Origin: a virus
Taxonomy: Duplodnaviria; Caudoviricetes
Length of the DNA: 64,000 nucleotides
Reading direction: 5' to 3' (one strand)
IMG/VR virus record: IMGVR_UViG_3300010167_000010
Span: 192,001 to 256,000 of that record
Shown here: positions 3,678-56,409 of the stretch, piece by piece
Layout of the letters: every line of letters begins with the position of its first letter
Numbering within the stretch: the first letter of the stretch is position 1
Made by a program: the position numbers and the translations under genes
Notes under the pieces: generated by a model
Databases searched by the model: none
What the model was told of the DNA's origin: nothing
The model's input: only the letters and a program-made list of their open reading frames with translations

Positions 3678-3708
3678 TCCGACCTTTCATAACTTTAACT
3701 AATTATTT

Positions 3709-19836: not shown

Positions 19837-21798
19837 ATGTCTTTAAAAGAAAGAATTGCACAAAAAGAAACAGACAATAGACTCCGCGAAAGTGCAGCAA
19901 TGCAACTTTACAAGGAAGATAAAAAGTTTCGTGCAGATAGATTAGTTGAAGCATGGTCAAGAATTCCAGAAATTGGAGCAGGCCTCAAGCAAATGCCAAT
20001 TTCTGATGCCAGAAACGTAGCTATCAACTTAGATAGACAAACTGCTTTCATGCAGGGTCTTCGTGAGTCACAACTCGCAACAGCGCTTAATGATTTCACA
20101 CCAGAAAATATGTTAAGACTTGTTAGATTAGCAATGCCTAACATAATTAGAAATAAAGTTTTCACAGAGTTCGCTCTTGAAACAACAAAAGATAGTATTA
20201 AATACATCAGACCATTCTTCAGCAAAACTGCAAGTGGACATCCACAATTAGACAGATCAGCTGATTATGATGGTTTCAATGACAGAGACGCTGCTGGTCA
20301 ACCACAAGATTATGATCCATGGGGATACAGCCTCGGTGGTGAATTTAATGGTGACGATTTTAGAAAAGCTCTTTATGAAGATACAAGAGACAGACATAAC
20401 ATGGAACTTGCAAATGCTATCGTAGTAAATGCCGATGGTCTTACAGGTCCTGCACCAGCTCTTGGTGACGATACAATTGAATATGGTCTTATTTTCAAGA
20501 GAGTTACATCAGCTGATATTTCTGGCATTTCTGACGAAACAGCTTTCCAATCAGGAAAGTGGGGCGTTGACGGTGCATTATTCATGGATGGATATACAAA
20601 CTTATACGGCTTTAATCCTGGCGATAAACCAGAAAGAGCAGAACAACAAGTAATTGCTGTTCAAGATAAGGGAAGCGGACAATTCTTTGCAGCACCTGGA
20701 TTTAAGGTAACAATTCTTAAATCAGCACAAGTAAGAGATAAGTTCTTAGTAGCACCTCCAAAAATTGGTCCAGGTAATAGCGCACATTGGGATGATCCAG
20801 TTGGAACTAGAGATATGACTATCCCTGGAGTTACTCCACCTGTAGCAAGTGCAAATTTAGCACCTGTTCTTGCATCAACTGGTACATTTATTATTAAAAT
20901 TGAAATTGAAGGCCAAACACCATCATGGTTCGAAGCTGGTAAAACTCAATTAAGAGCTTTCGGTAGATTTAATTCAGAAAGCGATTTCGAAGGAAATTAC
21001 TTAGGTGAAGTAGAACTCAGAATGGATGAATATATGTTTAGACCAAGTCCTACAACAATCGGTGTTTCTTGGAGTCAATTAACTGAAATCACATTAGATA
21101 CAAGCTTTAACATCAGTGCAGAAGAATATCTTGTTAGCTATGCTTCACAAGAAATCAGAAGTGCTCTTGACTATCGTGCAATTAGATTAGCATACGCAGT
21201 AGCAAAGACAAATGCAAAACATAATCCTAATTACTACTATGTATTCGATGCTGCATATAACACAACAAATGCTGGCGAAGGAGTACCTCCAACAAATCCA
21301 GTAACTAATGGAACAAAAGATGGTTATAGAGACAATGCTCAAACATTCGTTAATGCTATTGATGCTATCGGCGATATTATCTACGATGAACTCAATAGAG
21401 GAGGCGTAAGCAGACTCGTAGCTGGTCCATCAGCTTGTTCATACATGCACTTAAATGCAGGTTATAGTCCAAAAGGTAAACAAAATCAAACTGGTTCACA
21501 CCAATTTGGTGAACTCGACGGAATTCCACTTTTCAAAGTACCAAGTAATATTATTCCAACAAATGAATTACTTTGTGTATGGAAAAACGACCAAGTAGAA
21601 AATGACGTAAGTATCGCTTTCGGTACTCTCATACCATTCTTCTCAACAGGTATTATCCAAAGAAAGAACTTCTACAAAGAAGCAGGAATTGCAACTTATG
21701 GTGACTGGGCAGTCCTTAACAGAAGATATCTTGCTATTATTGCAATTGATAATCTTAAGGATCACAATCAAAGAGCAGGTAATAGAGCTCGTCCATAA
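19837..21798 (+). CDS. Major capsid protein, T4 gp23-like, with large insertion
   Basis: LVRLAMPNII, VELRM...IGVSWS...AEEYLVSYASQEIRSALD, GIATYG; AGGAG Shine-Dalgarno (SD); strong terminator downstream; N-terminal LRE putative maturation sites. Confidence 0.88.
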   Translation: MSLKERIAQKETDNRLRESAAMQLYKEDKKFRADRLVEAWSRIPEIGAGLKQMPISDARNVAINLDRQTAFMQGLRESQLATALNDFTPENMLRLVRLAMPNIIRNKVFTEFALETTKDSIKYIRPFFSKTASGHPQLDRSADYDGFNDRDAAGQPQDYDPWGYSLGGEFNGDDFRKALYEDTRDRHNMELANAIVVNADGLTGPAPALGDDTIEYGLIFKRVTSADISGISDETAFQSGKWGVDGALFMDGYTNLYGFNPGDKPERAEQQVIAVQDKGSGQFFAAPGFKVTILKSAQVRDKFLVAPPKIGPGNSAHWDDPVGTRDMTIPGVTPPVASANLAPVLASTGTFIIKIEIEGQTPSWFEAGKTQLRAFGRFNSESDFEGNYLGEVELRMDEYMFRPSPTTIGVSWSQLTEITLDTSFNISAEEYLVSYASQEIRSALDYRAIRLAYAVAKTNAKHNPNYYYVFDAAYNTTNAGEGVPPTNPVTNGTKDGYRDNAQTFVNAIDAIGDIIYDELNRGGVSRLVAGPSACSYMHLNAGYSPKGKQNQTGSHQFGELDGIPLFKVPSNIIPTNELLCVWKNDQVENDVSIAFGTLIPFFSTGIIQRKNFYKEAGIATYGDWAVLNRRYLAIIAIDNLKDHNQRAGNRARP

Positions 21799-21858: not shown

Positions 21859-22056
21859 ATGATAAACTCTTTAGAATCAGTACGAGAAGAATTAGAAGAT
21901 GTTTTCGATTTTGAAAGCATTTGGAAAAGAAATGAAGCAACTGATAATAATATTGCAGAACTTCAATCTATATTAGATAATATAAGTAAAGAATTATATT
22001 TTATAAAAGATGAAATACAAAAATTAAAAAAAGAACAAAATTTTTTATTGGATTAA
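21859..22056 (+). CDS. Small coiled-coil protein ending NFLLD
   Basis: 65-aa ORF with heptad pattern. Confidence 0.6.
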   Translation: MINSLESVREELEDVFDFESIWKRNEATDNNIAELQSILDNISKELYFIKDEIQKLKKEQNFLLD

Positions 22057-22060
22057 AATT

Positions 22061-22306
22061 ATGGGAACATATAATATAGCTGAAGGTGGAATCGGTAAAA
22101 TTGTTGGTGTTCAAGGAATGTCAGGACCGGGCCCAATTTCTATTGATACAGGTATGGGTACATCAAGTTATTTTGATGATATAATACATAAAATAACAAA
22201 CTTTGAAGAACAACTTCAAGAAATGGCTGAACTTAAACATAGAATATCTAGATTAGAAAAAGAACTTTTACTTTTAAAGAAAAATAGTAATTTATTATTC
22301 GATTGA
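22061..22306 (+). CDS. Small coiled-coil protein ending NLLFD
   Basis: 81-aa ORF; Gly-rich N-terminus, coiled-coil C-terminus. Confidence 0.6.
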   Translation: MGTYNIAEGGIGKIVGVQGMSGPGPISIDTGMGTSSYFDDIIHKITNFEEQLQEMAELKHRISRLEKELLLLKKNSNLLFD

Positions 22307-22822
22307 TTCATTATAAATATCTTCAAAAGATTCAGCATAACGTATTTTCTTTTGAATCCATTTAATGTCAGGAATTATTTTAATTTGTTCTGATTTACTT
22401 TGTATTTTTAAATTTAAAAAATTTATAATTTCATTTATTTCAAAAATCATTTTATCTATAGTTTCTTTTACATTATCTAAAGTTTTTCCTGGAATTTTTT
22501 TATTCCAATATTCTTGAGTTATTCGTCTAGCTGCATGAGCTGAAGTTTTATGAGTATCTTCTGAAATTAATCTAAAAAATTTTAAATATCTATTCTGAAT
22601 AAATCTGGTAGCAAATATATCTTTAATAAAATGATGAGCTATTCTTAATATCTTTTTTAAATTTTTAAGTAGTGGTAATGATTCAAAATCTCTAATGATT
22701 ACAGAAGCTTTATTTCCATTTATTTCTATTTCTTCTTGAATTTTATTTTGTTCAAATTCTTTTATAAGACTATCGAAAGAATTTATTGTGTCATCTAGTC
22801 TATTTATAATATTAGGTCTCAT
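22295..22822 (-). CDS. Hypothetical protein, last gene of putative internal-protein array
   Basis: 175 aa; overlaps upstream gene; C-terminal SFEDIYNE. Confidence 0.6.
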   Translation of the reverse strand: MRPNIINRLDDTINSFDSLIKEFEQNKIQEEIEINGNKASVIIRDFESLPLLKNLKKILRIAHHFIKDIFATRFIQNRYLKFFRLISEDTHKTSAHAARRITQEYWNKKIPGKTLDNVKETIDKMIFEINEIINFLNLKIQSKSEQIKIIPDIKWIQKKIRYAESFEDIYNESIE

Positions 22823-23363
22823 TTAAGTTATCCTTAAGATTTTTTCTTGTCACTGTATAAAGAGTTGTAGAATCTGGTCCTTTTTCTATTTTTCCGCCCC
22901 ATTTACTGACTAATTTATTATAAGCTTCTTTAATTGGATTTTCATATAATACTGACCATTCTAATTTACCGTTTTGTTTAATTTTTAATTTCATTAAGTT
23001 TATAATATCTTTTATAAATGTTATATTATTTTGTTGAAATGCAACTGTATATATATCTCCTCGTGTTTTAAGAAGAGAATTACCTGATTTAAATCTTATA
23101 TGACCAATTGGTATTTCACCATCATTTGATAATATTAAATAACATTCATTATTCCCAAATAAAGAATCTTCTACTAATTCTAAAGCATTATTATAATTTC
23201 TTTTTGGATCAAATAATTTCCAATTAGATTTTCTTTTTATTTTAAATAATTTTTCATTTAATTCATCAGAAATTTTTTCTTGGCCAATCATTAAAACTTC
23301 ATTTTCTTTTTTTATAGAAAGAGATTTTTCATTTAAAAGATATATTTCATTAAATGTTTTCAC
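22812..23363 (-). CDS. Putative internal head protein, GNAT-like
   Basis: N-terminus MKTFNEIYLLNE; IGHIRF and LEWSVLYENPIKEAYNKLVSKWGG resemble GNAT motifs. Confidence 0.5.
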   Translation of the reverse strand: MKTFNEIYLLNEKSLSIKKENEVLMIGQEKISDELNEKLFKIKRKSNWKLFDPKRNYNNALELVEDSLFGNNECYLILSNDGEIPIGHIRFKSGNSLLKTRGDIYTVAFQQNNITFIKDIINLMKLKIKQNGKLEWSVLYENPIKEAYNKLVSKWGGKIEKGPDSTTLYTVTRKNLKDNLNET

Positions 23364-23759
23364 TTAATCGTCTCCAAGTAAATATTTATAACCGTTTTCT
23401 ATATCTTCTTTTTCTAAACTAATATAAGCTTTAGTTAAAATGTCTACAGTATCACTTAAAGAATAACCAGAATGGGCCATGCGTCTTAACATTGGTATAT
23501 AATTTACTGTTCTAAAAGAATCTGGACTAAATCTTGGAACTAATGGAGAATCTGTATATCCGGTACCTGTTGGCAATCTTCTAGTATCATTTGGATTTTC
23601 TGCTTCTCTAACATAATTAACCCAATCAGCTAAATGAGATTCTTTCCATTTCATAAAAGGAGTATCTTTCCAATGTTTTTCTTTTCCCCAAGTTGATAAA
23701 CCCTTTAATAAAGTTTTTCGTGGATCTTTACTTTCATATATTTGTTTAAATGTTTTCAT
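23364..23759 (-). CDS. Putative internal head protein
   Basis: N-terminus MKTFKQIYE. Confidence 0.6.
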   Translation of the reverse strand: MKTFKQIYESKDPRKTLLKGLSTWGKEKHWKDTPFMKWKESHLADWVNYVREAENPNDTRRLPTGTGYTDSPLVPRFSPDSFRTVNYIPMLRRMAHSGYSLSDTVDILTKAYISLEKEDIENGYKYLLGDD

Positions 23760-24475
23760 TTATTTACCCTTTGTATTTTTTCAACATCAATTATTTTAAC
23801 ATCTTCAGCATTAAAAATACCAAGATTCTCATCACCACCTTCTCGTAATACTACACCATCGTATCCTAATTTTTTAACTATTTTTAATACGTCTGGTTTT
23901 TCTATATCTAAATAAGTATTACCAAATTCTTTAAGAGCCCAAGCTCTTCCTCTTGATAATTTCTTTTTAGTTTTTTCATACTCTTTTTTCCAAAATAAAT
24001 ATTGACGTTCAGCATCCCAATGTTTATTTTTTTTCATTTTTTCTTCCCAATTATTCATTATTTTTAAGTAATTTTCTTGTAAATAATTTTCACACCACTT
24101 TTCATAATCTTCATCATTTCTTAAAAAATTATAACCTTCTAAAGATTTAGGAATTTTAATACCAGATGATAATAAATTATCCCAGTCATCTATATCTAAT
24201 AAATCGAATAAATTTAAATTTCTAGTTAACTTTACTTTATAAACATATTTTCCATTTTTTCTTTTTCCATAATATTCAGCAAATTTTTTATTAGTTGCTA
24301 AAAATATCATTTTAATTTGTTTGTCTGCGTCTTTATCAGCAGCTTTTATTTGTGAACTAGGTGAATAAAAATTATCTTTAATATAATCACCCCTAGCTTC
24401 AAGTGTTTTAAATTTTGTATCTGAACCATGATAATATGTTTTACTTGATTTAAACACTCGTTCAAATAATTTCAT
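23756..24475 (-). CDS. Putative ADP-ribosyltransferase (HYE clade, ART-PolyVal-like), probable internal protein
   Basis: YYHGS, IFLATNKKFAEYY, VYKVKL, LGYDGVVL...ENLGIF; N-terminus MKLFE. Confidence 0.7.
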   Translation of the reverse strand: MKLFERVFKSSKTYYHGSDTKFKTLEARGDYIKDNFYSPSSQIKAADKDADKQIKMIFLATNKKFAEYYGKRKNGKYVYKVKLTRNLNLFDLLDIDDWDNLLSSGIKIPKSLEGYNFLRNDEDYEKWCENYLQENYLKIMNNWEEKMKKNKHWDAERQYLFWKKEYEKTKKKLSRGRAWALKEFGNTYLDIEKPDVLKIVKKLGYDGVVLREGGDENLGIFNAEDVKIIDVEKIQRVNK

Positions 24476-24909
24476 CTTTCTCTACCAATTTCTTCTATTT
24501 CTTCATCAGTTATTCTATTACTTTGTCGATCTTCATAAGAATCCATTGCCCAAGAACCAAAATCATACTTATCACATGGATCACCATAATTTTGTTTGTG
24601 AAAATCATTTAAATATTTTTTGAATTTTTCTCTAACTTGATCTAAAGATAATTTATCTTCTTTGCTTTGTAAAAAGTTTTTAAGAAGTCTTCTCATACCT
24701 CTAACAAAATGTGAAAAACGAGTATTTATTTTATCTTCTCTTTTAAATCTGGCTGGTTCGTCTCCTATGAAATTTCGTGGAGGATGATATCCAGGTTCTC
24801 CTTTTTTTCGATAACATTCATAACCTAAGAAATTTAAATGCGAAGTATAAATATCTTCTAATTTATATTTATTTTTTGCTTCTTTTAATATTTCATTAAA
24901 TGTTTTCAT
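24472..24909 (-). CDS. Putative internal head protein (start corrected to 24909)
   Basis: ATG at 24909 overlaps upstream stop (ATGA) and gives MKTFNEILKE. Confidence 0.65.
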   Translation of the reverse strand: MKTFNEILKEAKNKYKLEDIYTSHLNFLGYECYRKKGEPGYHPPRNFIGDEPARFKREDKINTRFSHFVRGMRRLLKNFLQSKEDKLSLDQVREKFKKYLNDFHKQNYGDPCDKYDFGSWAMDSYEDRQSNRITDEEIEEIGRER

Positions 24910-25109
24910 AATTTTGCCCAAAACTCCTTTAATTCACCGTATATTTCACCTAATCTATTCCATTCATCTAAATGGTCTTCTTCTAAATTTTTAATTTCTT
25001 GTGCAGCTGATCCAATATATTCTAATGCATCCCCTAATAATGATCGAGCTCTTGGTAATCCAGATTGATAATCAGCTATTGATTCAAATATTTGTTCAAA
25101 TGTTTTCAT
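24906..25109 (-). CDS. Putative internal head protein
   Basis: N-terminus MKTFEQIFE; ATGA overlap with 25106-27028. Confidence 0.65.
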   Translation of the reverse strand: MKTFEQIFESIADYQSGLPRARSLLGDALEYIGSAAQEIKNLEEDHLDEWNRLGEIYGELKEFWAKL

Positions 25110-27028
25110 GTAACTCTTCCTATTTTTGGTTGTTTTATTTCTCTTTTAAATATTGGTATATGTCTATGCCATTGTCGTCTAGATTTTTTATTATATGGAT
25201 TGCATAAATCAGCATAGGTGTATAAAGTATCTTTACTTTTAATTGGCTCATCCGGCATCATATCATAAAATGAATCATATTTTTCTCTATCTCTAATTTC
25301 TCTATTTCTAGTAGCGTCCCAATCTATCTCATCATCTTCATCCCAATAATATTCATTATCTTCAAATGTTTCGTGATGTTTAAATTGATTTATTGGTTTT
25401 TCAGATTCTTTTATTTTTTTCATTCTAATATAATCATTAATTTTTCCATCATCAAGACAATCTTGACATTGAGGTTCTCCTGATTCTAAATAATCATCAT
25501 TTTTTATTTCTTCATAAGTAATTCGTTTTCCGCATGTCCAACACCAAGTTCCACCATCTTTAATCCAATCTTCAGAAGATTCTTTTATCCCCTTACTCAT
25601 TTTTAATATTTTTTCAAAATCATCTTCATCATATCCTAATTCTATACAAAGTTGTTTTGCTTCATCTAAAGAAATATCACCTTTTCTAATTTGTTGTGCT
25701 AAACATTTATCCCAATAAGGTAAATTTTCTTTTAAATTTTTCTTTTCATCACATCTTTTTGCCCAACATACATCGCAATATCCATCGCGAACTTCATTTC
25801 CAGGTTTTTCTCCATCTTTTAATCCGCAAACTTTACAAATATTTTTCTCTAAAGAACTTATATAAGGTTTTTCGCATCCAAAAGTTGGGTAACTAGATGC
25901 TGTAATAGGTGGATTCCAATGTTCATTTAATCTATTTTTTACAATATCTACAAAAGCCATAATGCATTCAGTAAGATTACCTTTCTTCTCTTCATAAATA
26001 TATTCAGCTTCTTGAGGGTCAATTTCATATTCTACAACTAGATAATCTAATAATTCATCATTTGGTCCGTTATAATTATCAATAGTTTTTTCAAAATCAT
26101 CTTCAACTTCATCTGGTTCTATACATTCGCGTGGTTCAATATCTGTTTCATCTAAAAATTTTTCCATCGCACAAACAGCAAATTCTTCAGCATCTTCATC
26201 AGATAATTCATAATTGCTTTTTAAAGTTTCAGCAATGTTGTCTACATCATCATGTATAAAGCCCAATGCCCTATTTATAATTTCATCTTTTAGAGTTGGA
26301 TCTATATCTAAATAATTTTCATCTTCATAATTTTCCATTTCATATTCTATATCATTTATTTCAGCATTGTCACCTAGAGATCTTAATTCATCAAATGTAA
26401 CAATACGAGGATCTTGAACTTTTCTTCCCAATTCTCTTAATTCATCTTCCATAAAAAGTCGTTCAGTTAATTTATTTTCTCGTAAATATGGCTGTAAAAT
26501 CGGATGAAGTTCTAATAAAGAATTTTTTATTTTTTCTTCTAATATTTTATCTTTTACATCTTCAAATTCTTCTCTAGCTTCTGCAGCTTTAGCTTGATCT
26601 CCAATATTATCTGATTGATTTATTGCATTTGCAGCTGCAATCTGATCTGTTGCTTGTTGTTCAGCTTGATCTTCCTTTGGAGTTTCTAATCCAGCTTTTT
26701 CTGCCATGTCCATTGCTGAATTAGTGAAATCTTTTAAAGTTTTTGAGTCTACTTTTGATGGATCTATTTTTTTATCTTTTAATGCATTATTTACTAAATC
26801 ACTAAAATTATCAATATCAGGAAGTAGACTTTCTTCTTCATATAAGAGTACTCCAGTTCTTTTAACACTTTCTAAATCTGATAATTTTTTCCAAGATTTA
26901 TTTTCATTTAAAACTACTTTAGTGCCATCTGAACGAATTATTATCTTACCTTCCCAAATTTTGTTAGAATTTTTTATAAAAGCAGAGACTTCTTGACCCT
27001 CTGGAAACATTTTATTGTAATCTTTCAT
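25106..27028 (-). CDS. Acidic prohead core / internal protein with repeated (I/L)xE sites and two CxxC modules
   Basis: Very D/E-rich; LYE, LRE, LTE, LNE, LKE, IKES; CKVC..CDVC and CWTC..CQDC; ACTAATTA 2 nt upstream. Confidence 0.55.
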   Translation of the reverse strand: MKDYNKMFPEGQEVSAFIKNSNKIWEGKIIIRSDGTKVVLNENKSWKKLSDLESVKRTGVLLYEEESLLPDIDNFSDLVNNALKDKKIDPSKVDSKTLKDFTNSAMDMAEKAGLETPKEDQAEQQATDQIAAANAINQSDNIGDQAKAAEAREEFEDVKDKILEEKIKNSLLELHPILQPYLRENKLTERLFMEDELRELGRKVQDPRIVTFDELRSLGDNAEINDIEYEMENYEDENYLDIDPTLKDEIINRALGFIHDDVDNIAETLKSNYELSDEDAEEFAVCAMEKFLDETDIEPRECIEPDEVEDDFEKTIDNYNGPNDELLDYLVVEYEIDPQEAEYIYEEKKGNLTECIMAFVDIVKNRLNEHWNPPITASSYPTFGCEKPYISSLEKNICKVCGLKDGEKPGNEVRDGYCDVCWAKRCDEKKNLKENLPYWDKCLAQQIRKGDISLDEAKQLCIELGYDEDDFEKILKMSKGIKESSEDWIKDGGTWCWTCGKRITYEEIKNDDYLESGEPQCQDCLDDGKINDYIRMKKIKESEKPINQFKHHETFEDNEYYWDEDDEIDWDATRNREIRDREKYDSFYDMMPDEPIKSKDTLYTYADLCNPYNKKSRRQWHRHIPIFKREIKQPKIGRVT

Positions 27029-27064
27029 AATAATTAGTTTACAATATGAGAAATACTAATTATT

Positions 27065-29532: not shown

Positions 29533-29787
29533 ATGAATGATTTTGATATGAATATTGAAGATTTTTTTAATTTAGCCGGAAAAAATGCGGCTGGTGATTT
29601 ACTTTATCAAATAAGCAAAAGCAAAAATGTTGATGAGCAAATTGAAACTGTTAGGCAGTTTCTTTTAGATACTACATTGCGAGCAGAGGCTTGGGGAAAA
29701 ATTCAGGCCATCGAGCATGCTGTTAGCATGTATGAAGAAGCCCTCAAAGATAGGGTTTTGAATTTTAAGGAAAGAGGAATAGAATAA
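29533..29787 (+). CDS. Hypothetical protein
   Basis: Abuts neighbours in operon. Confidence 0.6.
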   Translation: MNDFDMNIEDFFNLAGKNAAGDLLYQISKSKNVDEQIETVRQFLLDTTLRAEAWGKIQAIEHAVSMYEEALKDRVLNFKERGIE

Positions 29788-30224
29788 TGCCTACAATTAA
29801 TGAAATTTTAAGTGCAAGCGGAAACCCAGAAGGAATTGAAAAGAGAATGGAAGATATGCCTGAAAATATCCAGCATATTCTTTCACGTGGAAATCGTTTA
29901 ATGCGGAATTGGTGGGATGCTTATTTTCCCCTTGCTCAAGCTAATGATGATCGAAATTTCGGTCGTAGGAATCCAAATAACAATAATTTTAAGCGCAGAT
30001 CACTTCGTGGGAAAATGATAAAAGCTAGGGAAGCAATCGAAGCTGCCGGTTATGAACCGCGTGGTGGGGAAGGAAGTGGTCCAAAGTGTGTTATCAAGCG
30101 CATTGAAAATACTACAGAACTTTTTCCAGAATATACTGTTATTGTAATTGGTCAATTTAATGCAGATTTTGGAAATTGGGATAATGAAGGACATTTTCAA
30201 AAAACATTTTCAGTAAAGTTTTAA
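29787..30224 (+). CDS. Hypothetical protein
   Basis: 145 aa, coupled (TAATG). Confidence 0.65.
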   Translation: MPTINEILSASGNPEGIEKRMEDMPENIQHILSRGNRLMRNWWDAYFPLAQANDDRNFGRRNPNNNNFKRRSLRGKMIKAREAIEAAGYEPRGGEGSGPKCVIKRIENTTELFPEYTVIVIGQFNADFGNWDNEGHFQKTFSVKF

Positions 30225-54730: not shown

Positions 54731-54765
54731 ATTTATTTAGTTAGTAAATGGAAAAGACGATAATT

Positions 54766-56409
54766 TTATTTTAATTTTGGTAATTGCACTTCAGAATTCC
54801 ATTCCCAAGTAGTATTTAAGTCCCACCCTAACGTATTTCTAATAAAAGTTTCTGTTAATGGTAATTGTAATAAAGACCCGTGTCTAGAACCAAATAAATT
54901 AGATGCAAAACTATTTTGTACATTACCGCTTTCTCTGGCTCCAACTATTCCTCCATAAGAATCTGAATCAATATTATTACTTAAATCTATTATTGAAAAA
55001 CAATTTCTTACTAAATCAGTAGACCATTGCATTATTCCAATTATTCCACCGATAATGCTATCTTTACTTCCATTATTTATATTTGTTTTAGAATAACAAT
55101 TTTCTATTCTAGTACTTCTATCATTAGATATCCCAACTATACCGCCTATTGAAAATGCATTTTTACTAGAAATATTTATTATTACATAACAATCTTTTAT
55201 AGTAGTATCTTTAACAACCCTACCAATTATTCCACCAATTTGTAAATTGGGGCTCCAATTATCGGGAGTAATAATAATTCCAGAAAAACTACAATTTTCT
55301 ATTGAAACTTCATAAGAAAGTCCAAATAAACCACCTGTTATAGCTGATGAATTAAGTTTGCCATTTATTACGTGACAATTTATAATATTAGTTTCTTCTA
55401 AAGTTGTTGAAAAACAAGCCGCAGAAAATCCAGTAAAATCGCAATTATCTAAAATTAAATTTTTTATAGCGCCGCCAGCTGCACATTGTTTAATAAAAGC
55501 TACTTCATTATCATGATCTATAGTTTTTAAATTTTTAATATATTTATTATTTCCATTAAATGATCCAGTAAATACACTATCCCAACCTTCTAAATGGCTT
55601 CCAATTGGAGACCAATTACTTTCTTCTGTAATTGCTAAAGTTATATTATCCATTAAAATATAATGATCACTTAAAACCCAATTACCGTGGCCAATTCTTT
55701 TTAAATCTTGTTCATTAAATATTTGCCACGGATCTTCAGAAGTTCCAGAACCAAAAGTTTCTATTTTTTCTTCTTTTAATATTTTAATATTTTCTTCAAT
55801 ATCAAATATACGCTCATTCATAGATGTCATTAATTCTTTTATATCTTTAATATCATTTCGTACTTCATTTACATTATATTCTATAAATGTATTTACTAAT
55901 TCTTTAAAATTTTCTATGTCAAGTTCTACATCTTTTAATTTTTCTTTTACTGCTTCTTTATCTTTATTATGTGTTTGCTTTAAAGAATTAAGATCTTCTC
56001 GTAATTTTGTATATTCTTCTATAAGCTCACCATTATCTTCTAAACTATAAATTTGTTGTTGTAAATCTAATAATAATTGATCTAGATCTTCTTCAAGAGC
56101 TAATATTGCTTCTTTTAATTCTTTTTTAGTAGTTGCTTTTTCTACCGCTACTTTAATTTCAAATATATCTGTTTCTAATTCATTTAATTGACTTTCAATT
56201 ACTCTTAATTTTCCGTTCTTTTCATCAAATAAAAGATTTAATTTTTCTTTAATAGAATGTAATTCATTATTTTCTATATCGTTTTCTATAAATTTAGAAA
56301 TACTTCTCAAAGAAATGTTTTTTGTTTCATTATTTTGAACTAATGGTAATATTTCATTACCACTTAATTCATTAGCCATTTCTAGTTGACTAATTCTTTT
56401 AGGTTCCAT
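54766..56409 (-). CDS. Tail fibre/adhesin: attachment N-terminus, coiled coil, GLUG-repeat domain
   Basis: KRISQL...LSGNEILPLVQ; heptads; GSGTSEDPWQI, FTGSFNGN, repeated IGGIIG/IENCYS. Confidence 0.7.
   Translation of the reverse strand: MEPKRISQLEMANELSGNEILPLVQNNETKNISLRSISKFIENDIENNELHSIKEKLNLLFDEKNGKLRVIESQLNELETDIFEIKVAVEKATTKKELKEAILALEEDLDQLLLDLQQQIYSLEDNGELIEEYTKLREDLNSLKQTHNKDKEAVKEKLKDVELDIENFKELVNTFIEYNVNEVRNDIKDIKELMTSMNERIFDIEENIKILKEEKIETFGSGTSEDPWQIFNEQDLKRIGHGNWVLSDHYILMDNITLAITEESNWSPIGSHLEGWDSVFTGSFNGNNKYIKNLKTIDHDNEVAFIKQCAAGGAIKNLILDNCDFTGFSAACFSTTLEETNIINCHVINGKLNSSAITGGLFGLSYEVSIENCSFSGIIITPDNWSPNLQIGGIIGRVVKDTTIKDCYVIINISSKNAFSIGGIVGISNDRSTRIENCYSKTNINNGSKDSIIGGIIGIMQWSTDLVRNCFSIIDLSNNIDSDSYGGIVGARESGNVQNSFASNLFGSRHGSLLQLPLTETFIRNTLGWDLNTTWEWNSEVQLPKLK

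Follow-up and report, generated by a model that had tools for sequence, protein, structure and literature searches.

The window analysed here is a stretch of 64,000 nucleotides (nt), bases 192001-256000 of an IMG/VR phage record of 329,018 bp that carries direct terminal repeats and has a G+C content of ~28%. In DNA comparisons, near-identical DNA was found only in termite-gut metagenomes, and the host of the phage is probably a spirochaete. The following paragraphs concentrate on a cassette of seven coupled minus-strand genes, from X640 (25106-27028) to X175 (22295-22822), which is convergent with the gene of the major capsid protein (19837-21798, plus strand). According to the open reading frame (ORF) listing and the DNA, five of these genes (22812-25109) begin with a common short peptide, here called the tag. 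Coordinates refer to the window unless they are given as genome positions.

The first gene of the operon encodes X640, an acidic protein of 640 amino acids (aa) with four CxxC pairs, whose start (MKDYNKMF) is not a canonical tag and whose homologue occupies the same position in the relative G001 (locus L001). It is followed by T67 (24906-25109, 67 aa), with the tag MKTFEQIFE and then S; T145 (24472-24909, 145 aa), which starts at an internal ATG and carries MKTFNEILKE followed by A; T239 (23756-24475, 239 aa), where a degenerate tag, MKLFERVF with the motif L-F-E5, precedes YYHGS; T131 (23364-23759, 131 aa), with MKTFKQIYE and then S; and T183 (22812-23363, 183 aa), which has a GTG start and the tag (M)KTFNEIYLLNE followed by K. 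The last gene, X175 (175 aa), has no N-terminal tag. All junctions of the cassette are ATGA overlaps, as between T67 and T145, or a TAA directly followed by GTG, and the genes are therefore translationally coupled. The tag DNA reads ATGAAAACATTT in three genes and GTGAAAACATTT in one, so that four fit RTGAAAACATTT. Outside the tag, the five proteins show no mutual similarity: in an all-against-all BLASTP comparison the best E value was 0.005, for a stretch that includes the tag itself. An initial annotation of this DNA had described the interval 22295-27028 as an array of otherwise unrelated tagged proteins next to a capsid gene and behind a late-type motif. The five N-termini quoted there (that of T183 as MKTFNEIYLLNE, from the GTG start), the DNA consensus in four genes, and the lack of any relationship beyond the tag agree exactly with the ORF listing, the DNA and the BLASTP comparison, and the adjoining gene encodes a gp23-like capsid protein; the interval also includes two genes, X640 and X175, that lack an N-terminal tag.

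Hardly any matches were obtained when Pfam and PHROGs were searched with the seven proteins of the cassette and those of neighbouring genes. No Pfam or PHROG family was matched by X640, T67 or T145, and for T131 an Atlas search returned no usable match, although its C-terminal part has a homologue in G001 (L001) that stands there behind MKSFNQIYES. T67, T145 and T131 thus remain orphans. Atlas look-alikes of T183 bear the name N-acetyltransferase, which makes a GNAT acetyltransferase possible for this protein, as a lead only; its homologue in G001 starts with MQTFSEI.

The tag had been taken for a feature of the local array. The array is real, and it is the largest in the genome, with five tagged genes behind one promoter-like motif beside the capsid gene, but a genome-wide scan finds the tag on ~16 genes. 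The pattern MK[TSL]F.[EQ]I occurs four times at the called ATG N-termini of 407 genes versus 0.024 expected (Poisson P ~1e-8), an expectation that uses the position-specific N-terminal composition and ATG-only gene calling. When all six frames were scored with a matrix derived from the tags, the top 14 matches all lay in long ORFs, 12 of them at or at most three residues from the N-terminus, and matches in short junk ORFs reached lower scores only. The reversed motif gave three matches, equal to the number of forward matches in junk ORFs (three). Unsupervised clustering of N-termini recovered, de novo, two leader families, the MKTF-type tag and a Ser-rich leader, MKIRNGFVSNSSSSSF.

Outside the cassette, tagged genes were found at genome positions 20293-20913 (MKDFNQIYE), 55285-55812 (TTG start, KTFDEIYKLNE; immediately preceding the protease gene described below), 134854-135129 (MEKTFDQIYNE), 136259-136636 (IKSFDDILNE after 37 residues), 136690-137370 (MIKLFEEIYQQ), 147308-147808 (MKTFNEILKE), 147808-148023 (MKEFNEVLNE), 162226-162915 (229 aa, MLRTFEEILKE), 162908-164188 (426 aa, MKSFEKILE plus an internal KTFDDIYRLNE at residues 91-101), 172903-174027 (MKTFDNILEE), and 174033-174233 (MEKLFEEIYKLKE). 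Several weaker variants also occur in the genome. One of them, MPTINEILSAS, was picked out by the unsupervised clustering at the start of a 145-aa protein (29787-30224, plus strand). Another tag-like sequence, ESFNQIYE followed by K, lies at about residue 170 of an 832-aa protein (genome 166346-168844, minus strand; L033:11346-13844), whose gene opens the operon that lies immediately downstream of the portal gene; a further cleavable joint may be present there.

Every one of the 23 tags of this genome and the close relative contains Phe4 and Ile7, and 20/23 have Thr or Ser at position 3. Position 3 is encoded by ACA, ACT or ACG for Thr and by TCT, TCA or AGT, hence both Ser families (TCN and AGY), for Ser; the codons of Ile7 are ATA, ATT and ATC. 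Since the residues stay constant though the codons vary, selection acts on the peptide. Most tags end within residues 7-12 in IFE, IYE, ILE, LKE or LNE, i.e. in the form [LI]-x-E, and T239 has L-F-E5.

These starts resemble the capsid-targeting sequences (CTSs) of phage T4. In the T4 genome (NC_000866), ipI starts with MKTFKEF and ipII and ipIII start with MKTYQEFIAE, as the initial annotation had stated, and gp24 starts with MAKINELLRE followed by S. The internal head proteins of T4 reach the core of the prohead by a CTS of 10-20 residues that is removed by gp21, and Alt is cut by the same protease at ITE-6 and LTE-619 (PMC5694885). The internal proteins of T-even phages are highly diverse and have only the CTS in common, and many ip genes were found by this sequence (PMC3012670; PMC12373910). 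As in the T4 proteins IPI, IPII and IPIII (also Alt and gp24), about ten N-terminal residues, here MKTF[NEKD][EQ]I[LYF].E, are shared by otherwise unrelated proteins, the tag ends in [LI]-x-E, the capsid is gp23-like, the portal gp20-like, and the protease of gp21 fold. The cargo loci are hyperplastic like the ip loci of T-even phages (PMC3012670; PMC12373910). Several features differ: position 7 is Ile here and Phe in the T4 tags; ~16 genes are tagged versus three internal proteins as well as Alt for T4; five tagged genes form one coupled array beside the capsid gene; some tags stand within fused proteins, where they separate domains; and the protease continues into a coiled-coil region of scaffold-like appearance. 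In phiKZ and SPN3US, many head-internal proteins are likewise processed by a gp21-related protease, at x-x-E (PMC5694885), but their propeptides are mostly longer than 100 residues, share no common short tag, and are cleaved at S/A/G-x-E.

The genome encodes the T4-type head components that such a system would require. The capsid protein (653 aa) has 398 homologues, many with a precomputed match to PF07068 (Gp23). The protein itself gave no sequence match in Pfam, in PHROGs or, by phmmer, in the PDB, nor did tblastn against GenBank phages find one; it is too distant from T4 gp23 for a link by BLAST or phmmer. The sequence L-R-E77 followed by S is nearly invariant in 13 homologues and lies 18 residues before a block that resembles T4 MVRRAIPN, versus 33 residues for LTE65 of T4; as a maturation site it is suggestive only. 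A neighbouring 453-aa protein retrieved from the PDB by phmmer only a chance-level fibronectin row (E 0.61). The portal gene (gp20-like; genome 169994-172243) was recognized by weak matches to PF07230 and phrog_213, and a homologue of RIIA is also encoded.

The putative prohead protease was traced via relatives in which a 581-aa gene sits between the portal and capsid genes. Its counterpart here encodes a protein of 723 aa (genome 52741-54912, minus strand; L034:12741-14912) composed of a predicted gp21-fold N-terminal domain, with the motifs NGNKRIYP, CDHP, GTSSSG and IERLADLVLNPSQ, and a long coiled coil. Alignment of the protease domain with T4 gp21 by hhalign gave an E value of 3.6e-5 (probability 71%) and paired DHP with NHP (H122/H85), SSSG with SSRG (S178-180/S140), and LADLV with GVDAV (D204/D168), where D168 as the catalytic acid follows the description of the triad in PMC5694885, not a numbered source. 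Across 25 homologues, H122, S178-180 and D204 vary hardly or not at all. Modelled by AlphaFold, the domain reached a predicted local distance difference test (pLDDT) score of ~90 over residues 20-150; in a comparison with the PDB, only the three chains of 5JBL (T4 gp21) passed E<=0.001 (8.6e-5 to 3e-4, probability 1.0), while the weak rows included herpesvirus proteases. In nr, the name 'prohead core protein serine protease' is attached to one homologue. Searches by phmmer with T4 gp20-24, gp67, gp68, inh and the internal proteins against the proteome gave noise, the best row being gp21 versus the 723-aa protein (E 0.05), and the profile of the whole protease-scaffold protein was swamped by coiled-coil matches in the PDB. 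Two other candidates for the protease, a 161-aa gene downstream of the portal gene and a 187-aa gene which in relatives lies close to the capsid gene, were rejected because neither gave matches. The coiled-coil region spans ~400 residues and is scaffold-like; the 723-aa protein contains 27 [LI]-x-E motifs, six of them within the first 70 residues, and homologues of 600-840 aa are common in metagenomes.

The tagged genes lie close to these head genes: five of them flank the capsid gene and one the protease gene, two are found upstream of the portal gene, and two more belong to the operon just downstream of it. They also share a promoter-like motif with structural genes. The motif which the initial annotation had placed at the head of the cassette is indeed there, since CTAATTA (27031-27037, minus strand; within ACTAATTATT) ends 2 nt before the ATG of X640. 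The word ACTAA[AT]TA is ~17-25-fold enriched in upstream regions, and ACTAA[AT]TA[AT]TA is the most enriched upstream word, occurring in 20 upstream regions versus ~1 expected for each of its two variants. It usually stands 2 nt before the ATG, in ~50 genes (in the window, besides X640, e.g. at 3699-3705 on the plus and 54734-54740 on the minus strand), among them the portal, baseplate-wedge, 4671-aa and other structural genes. The protease-scaffold and capsid genes have it upstream at a distance of 37-40 nt, accompanied in the capsid gene by a strong GGAG. Operons headed by CTAA[AT]TA hold 13/15 of the scored tagged genes (14 with the GTG start of T183), versus 153/407 of all genes. Should the motif act as a late element of the -10 type, many of the late mRNAs would have little or no leader.

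To the family of T239 belong the 229-aa gene product (genome 162226-162915), a C-terminal portion of the 426-aa protein, and an orthologue in G001, so that three copies (T239 and two paralogues) reside in this genome. T239 matches ART-PolyVal (PF18760) with an E value of 0.008 and 17.4 bits, which is below the gathering cut-off of 31.2, and a word-based homologue search with T239 returned T239 alone. In 43 sequences of the family, eight match ART-PolyVal at E<=0.001 (best 8.6e-9) and none matches another Pfam family, and H16, Y79 and E212 are conserved to at least 90%. A family profile retrieved 180 representatives, including multi-kilodalton proteins of the polyvalent type. In the structural model of T239 (pLDDT 77), the top structure matches all have the ADP-ribosyltransferase (ART) fold, with MbcT as the best (Z 8.7) and, at Z 7.2-7.7, diphtheria toxin, PARP1/2, ParT and the ART domain of the cyanophage A4 pre-ejectosome; Z values near 7-8 are moderate. 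The T239 family is thus predicted, from model and profile, to have an ART fold of the H-Y-E type.

Many metagenomic members of the family carry a tag directly before YYHGS, e.g. MKTFDEIYQLNE, MIKTFNEILQE or MKSFIEVLNE. No such tag accompanies the ART domains inside large polyvalent proteins, which marks it as an addition to the ART domain and not a component of it. Like T4 Alt, a packaged and injected ADP-ribosyltransferase, T239 combines a predicted ART fold with a short, putative gp21-type N-terminal propeptide, is encoded among presumed late or virion genes, and would presumably be delivered with the DNA; its L-F-E5 is comparable to the six-residue propeptide of Alt. The two differ in clade, with Alt belonging to the R-S-E type, whereas T239 and its paralogues have conserved H, Y and E and match the ART-PolyVal/MbcT/diphtheria toxin/PARP type. 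The T239 family may accordingly be regarded as a functional parallel to packaged Alt. The closest sequence family is formed by the ART-PolyVal domains of phage polyvalent proteins, for which a role as early effectors packaged in the virion has been predicted (Iyer et al., 2017; PMC5512222). Elsewhere these domains are embedded in giant multidomain proteins; here, the T4-type tag is followed by an ART on its own or by an ART plus a single further domain.

Comparison with relatives, a check proposed in the initial annotation, revealed a turnover of cargo behind a retained tag. G001, whose capsid protein is 82% identical, has at least 12 tagged ORFs (including MKSFNQIYES, MKSFNQICES, MKTFEQILRE, MRTFKQILRE and MKSFSEILQE), and its capsid-adjacent cargo differs from that of the window. 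The array of G001 consists of the X640 homologue, a homologue of X175 fused in frame to MKTFEQILRE and a 316-aa cargo, a 212-aa protein whose C-terminus resembles that of T131, and a 270-aa cargo. X175 is 51% identical to the first 165 residues of the fused ORF (481 aa; L001). It ends in AESFEDIYNESIE directly before the stop codon, and this end (ESFEDIYNESIE, 22298-22333, minus strand) aligns with KMKTFEQILRE in L001, the tag at the fusion joint of G001; the end of X175 is therefore read as a fossil tag left after the loss of a cargo. The capsid-adjacent synteny is kept in the closest relative only, other capsid loci having different neighbours, and relatives with a capsid identity of at most 59% have 0-3 strict tag matches.

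A single low-depth termite-gut DNA contig (run X1, depth 2.5) skips between positions 24908 and 25116 of the window, with 35 letters on the shorter side of the joint and 7 other letters in between. It would correspond, weakly, to a variant without T67, joined almost exactly from tag start to tag start, and gives a weak hint that tags serve as recombination joints; most contig joints in the termite-gut set have sides of 21-35 letters, which makes them unreliable.

It is supposed, with a probability of roughly 0.7, that the shared N-terminus is a capsid-targeting sequence of the T4 type. Late in infection, proteins starting with M-K-[T/S]-F-x-[E/Q]-I-[L/Y/F]-(x)-E would be recruited by the ~10-residue tag to the scaffolding core of the prohead, which is probably formed by the coiled-coil part of the protease-scaffold fusion. 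Cleavage by the gp21-type protease after the Glu of [L/I]-x-E would then remove the tag, and the mature cargo would stay in the head and enter the host together with the DNA. The short tag probably serves in addition as a joint for gain, loss and fusion of cassettes. This reading had been proposed in the initial annotation, and all of its predictions that can be computed came out in its favour: the head genes, the likeness of the tags, the [LI]-x-E ends, the clustering, the turnover of cargo, and the ART cargo.

Three other explanations of the shared start were weighed. A module at the DNA level, i.e. an initiation context or a recombination joint that spread with the cassettes and has no targeting role, could explain why 4/5 local tags fit RTGAAAACATTT and why the genes are translationally coupled, and recombination at tags is suggested by the fossil tag of X175 and the low-depth contig that skips T67. 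Recombination at tags, however, fits capsid targeting as well, and a DNA module would hardly keep the residues constant while position 3 varies among ACN, TCN and AGY and Ile7 among ATA, ATT and ATC. It also leaves aside that the conserved part comprises 9-12 residues with a Glu at its end, that tags occur inside proteins, where an initiation context is irrelevant, and that T4 tags of proven targeting role are nearly identical; this explanation is thus considered very improbable. The tag could also be recognized by, or serve as an address for, some partner outside the core, for instance a modifying enzyme, a chaperone or an export route. Other shared peptides are indeed in use in this genome (the Ser-rich leader MKIRNGFVSNSSSSSF heads seven genes). 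Yet the tag matches the capsid-targeting tags of T4, not any leader known from other systems, lacks the hydrophobic core of a signal peptide, ends in a Glu motif that suits the encoded gp21-type protease, and marks genes within and beside head-gene operons, which renders such a partner unlikely.

A protease-removable propeptide that holds toxic enzymes such as the ARTs inactive and plays no part in capsid routing would account for the position of the tag in the ART family, where it abuts the first catalytic motif (YYHGS) and Glu5 is conserved to at least 90% in 43 members. But the tag also heads small, non-enzyme-like proteins of 66-145 aa. Moreover, gp21-type proteases act inside the prohead in T4 (PMC5694885), and processing by such an enzyme therefore implies a location in the head; a role without routing is accordingly given little credence.

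Several points weigh against a capsid-targeting sequence. Some tags do not stand at a Met start: one is internal in the 426-aa protein, and another (genome 136259-136636) follows 37 residues and has no in-frame ATG just before it. The tag of T239 is only degenerate. With Peptidase_S77 (PF03420), neither this genome nor four relatives yielded a match at E<=1, so that the protease is assigned by comparison of profiles and folds. That the promoter-like motif is late is deduced only from the genes that follow it, the phage is uncultured, and T4 itself offers no structural definition of the partner that recognizes the tag. In the complete genome G003 (capsid 59% identical), de novo clustering found no comparable tag family; the expansion of the tag is therefore lineage-specific and not universal.

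The principle behind a capsid-targeting sequence has already been published for T-even phages and is here extended to a very distant T4-like jumbo phage, so that no new principle is put forward; the extension brings more numerous and different cargo, internal tags, and the fusion of protease and scaffold. A more far-reaching reading, for which the odds are put slightly below even, regards the capsid address of T4 as an ancient code kept almost letter for letter between T4 and a lineage of termite-gut jumbo phages whose capsid protein BLAST no longer links to gp23; in that lineage it would have become a general module for ~16 cargos, three H-Y-E ADP-ribosyltransferases among them, a cleavable linker between the domains of fused proteins, and a joint for gain, loss and fusion of cargo. 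If so, the set of injected proteins of uncultured T4-like phages could be read from their sequence. If the capsid-targeting reading is right, a motif of 7-10 residues suffices to list the proteins which an uncultured giant phage delivers into its host at the first moment of infection. The finding also suggests that the packaging tag of T4 could be transferable between T4-like heads that are very distant from one another. In T4, proteins of this class are, among others, the anti-restriction proteins Ip1-3 and Alt, an enzyme of host takeover. The three ART-fold enzymes, the possible acetyltransferase and about ten orphans are candidates for screens of defence and counter-defence; for most cargos, the anti-defence role suggested in the initial annotation would be a guess.

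In termite-gut metatranscriptomes, RNA contigs fall heavily on the capsid gene of relatives and thinly on the cassette, a depth that can neither rank nor time genes. Contigs that are 85-95% alike on the capsid gene (19837-21798) have summed word depths of 130-450, and relatives of the phage therefore appear in termite-gut RNA libraries. Between the capsid gene and the cassette lie two small coiled-coil ORFs on the plus strand (21859-22056 and 22061-22306), which terminate in NFLLD and NLLFD, respectively. The operon just downstream of the portal gene includes, immediately upstream of two tagged ART-family genes, a gene for a hybrid sensor kinase of 705 aa with dCache, HisKA, HATPase_c and receiver domains (genome 164185-166302, minus strand; L033:9185-11302). 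The Ser-rich leader is found on seven unrelated genes (genome 122332-124580, 151728, 287639 and 297112) and on six genes in G001.

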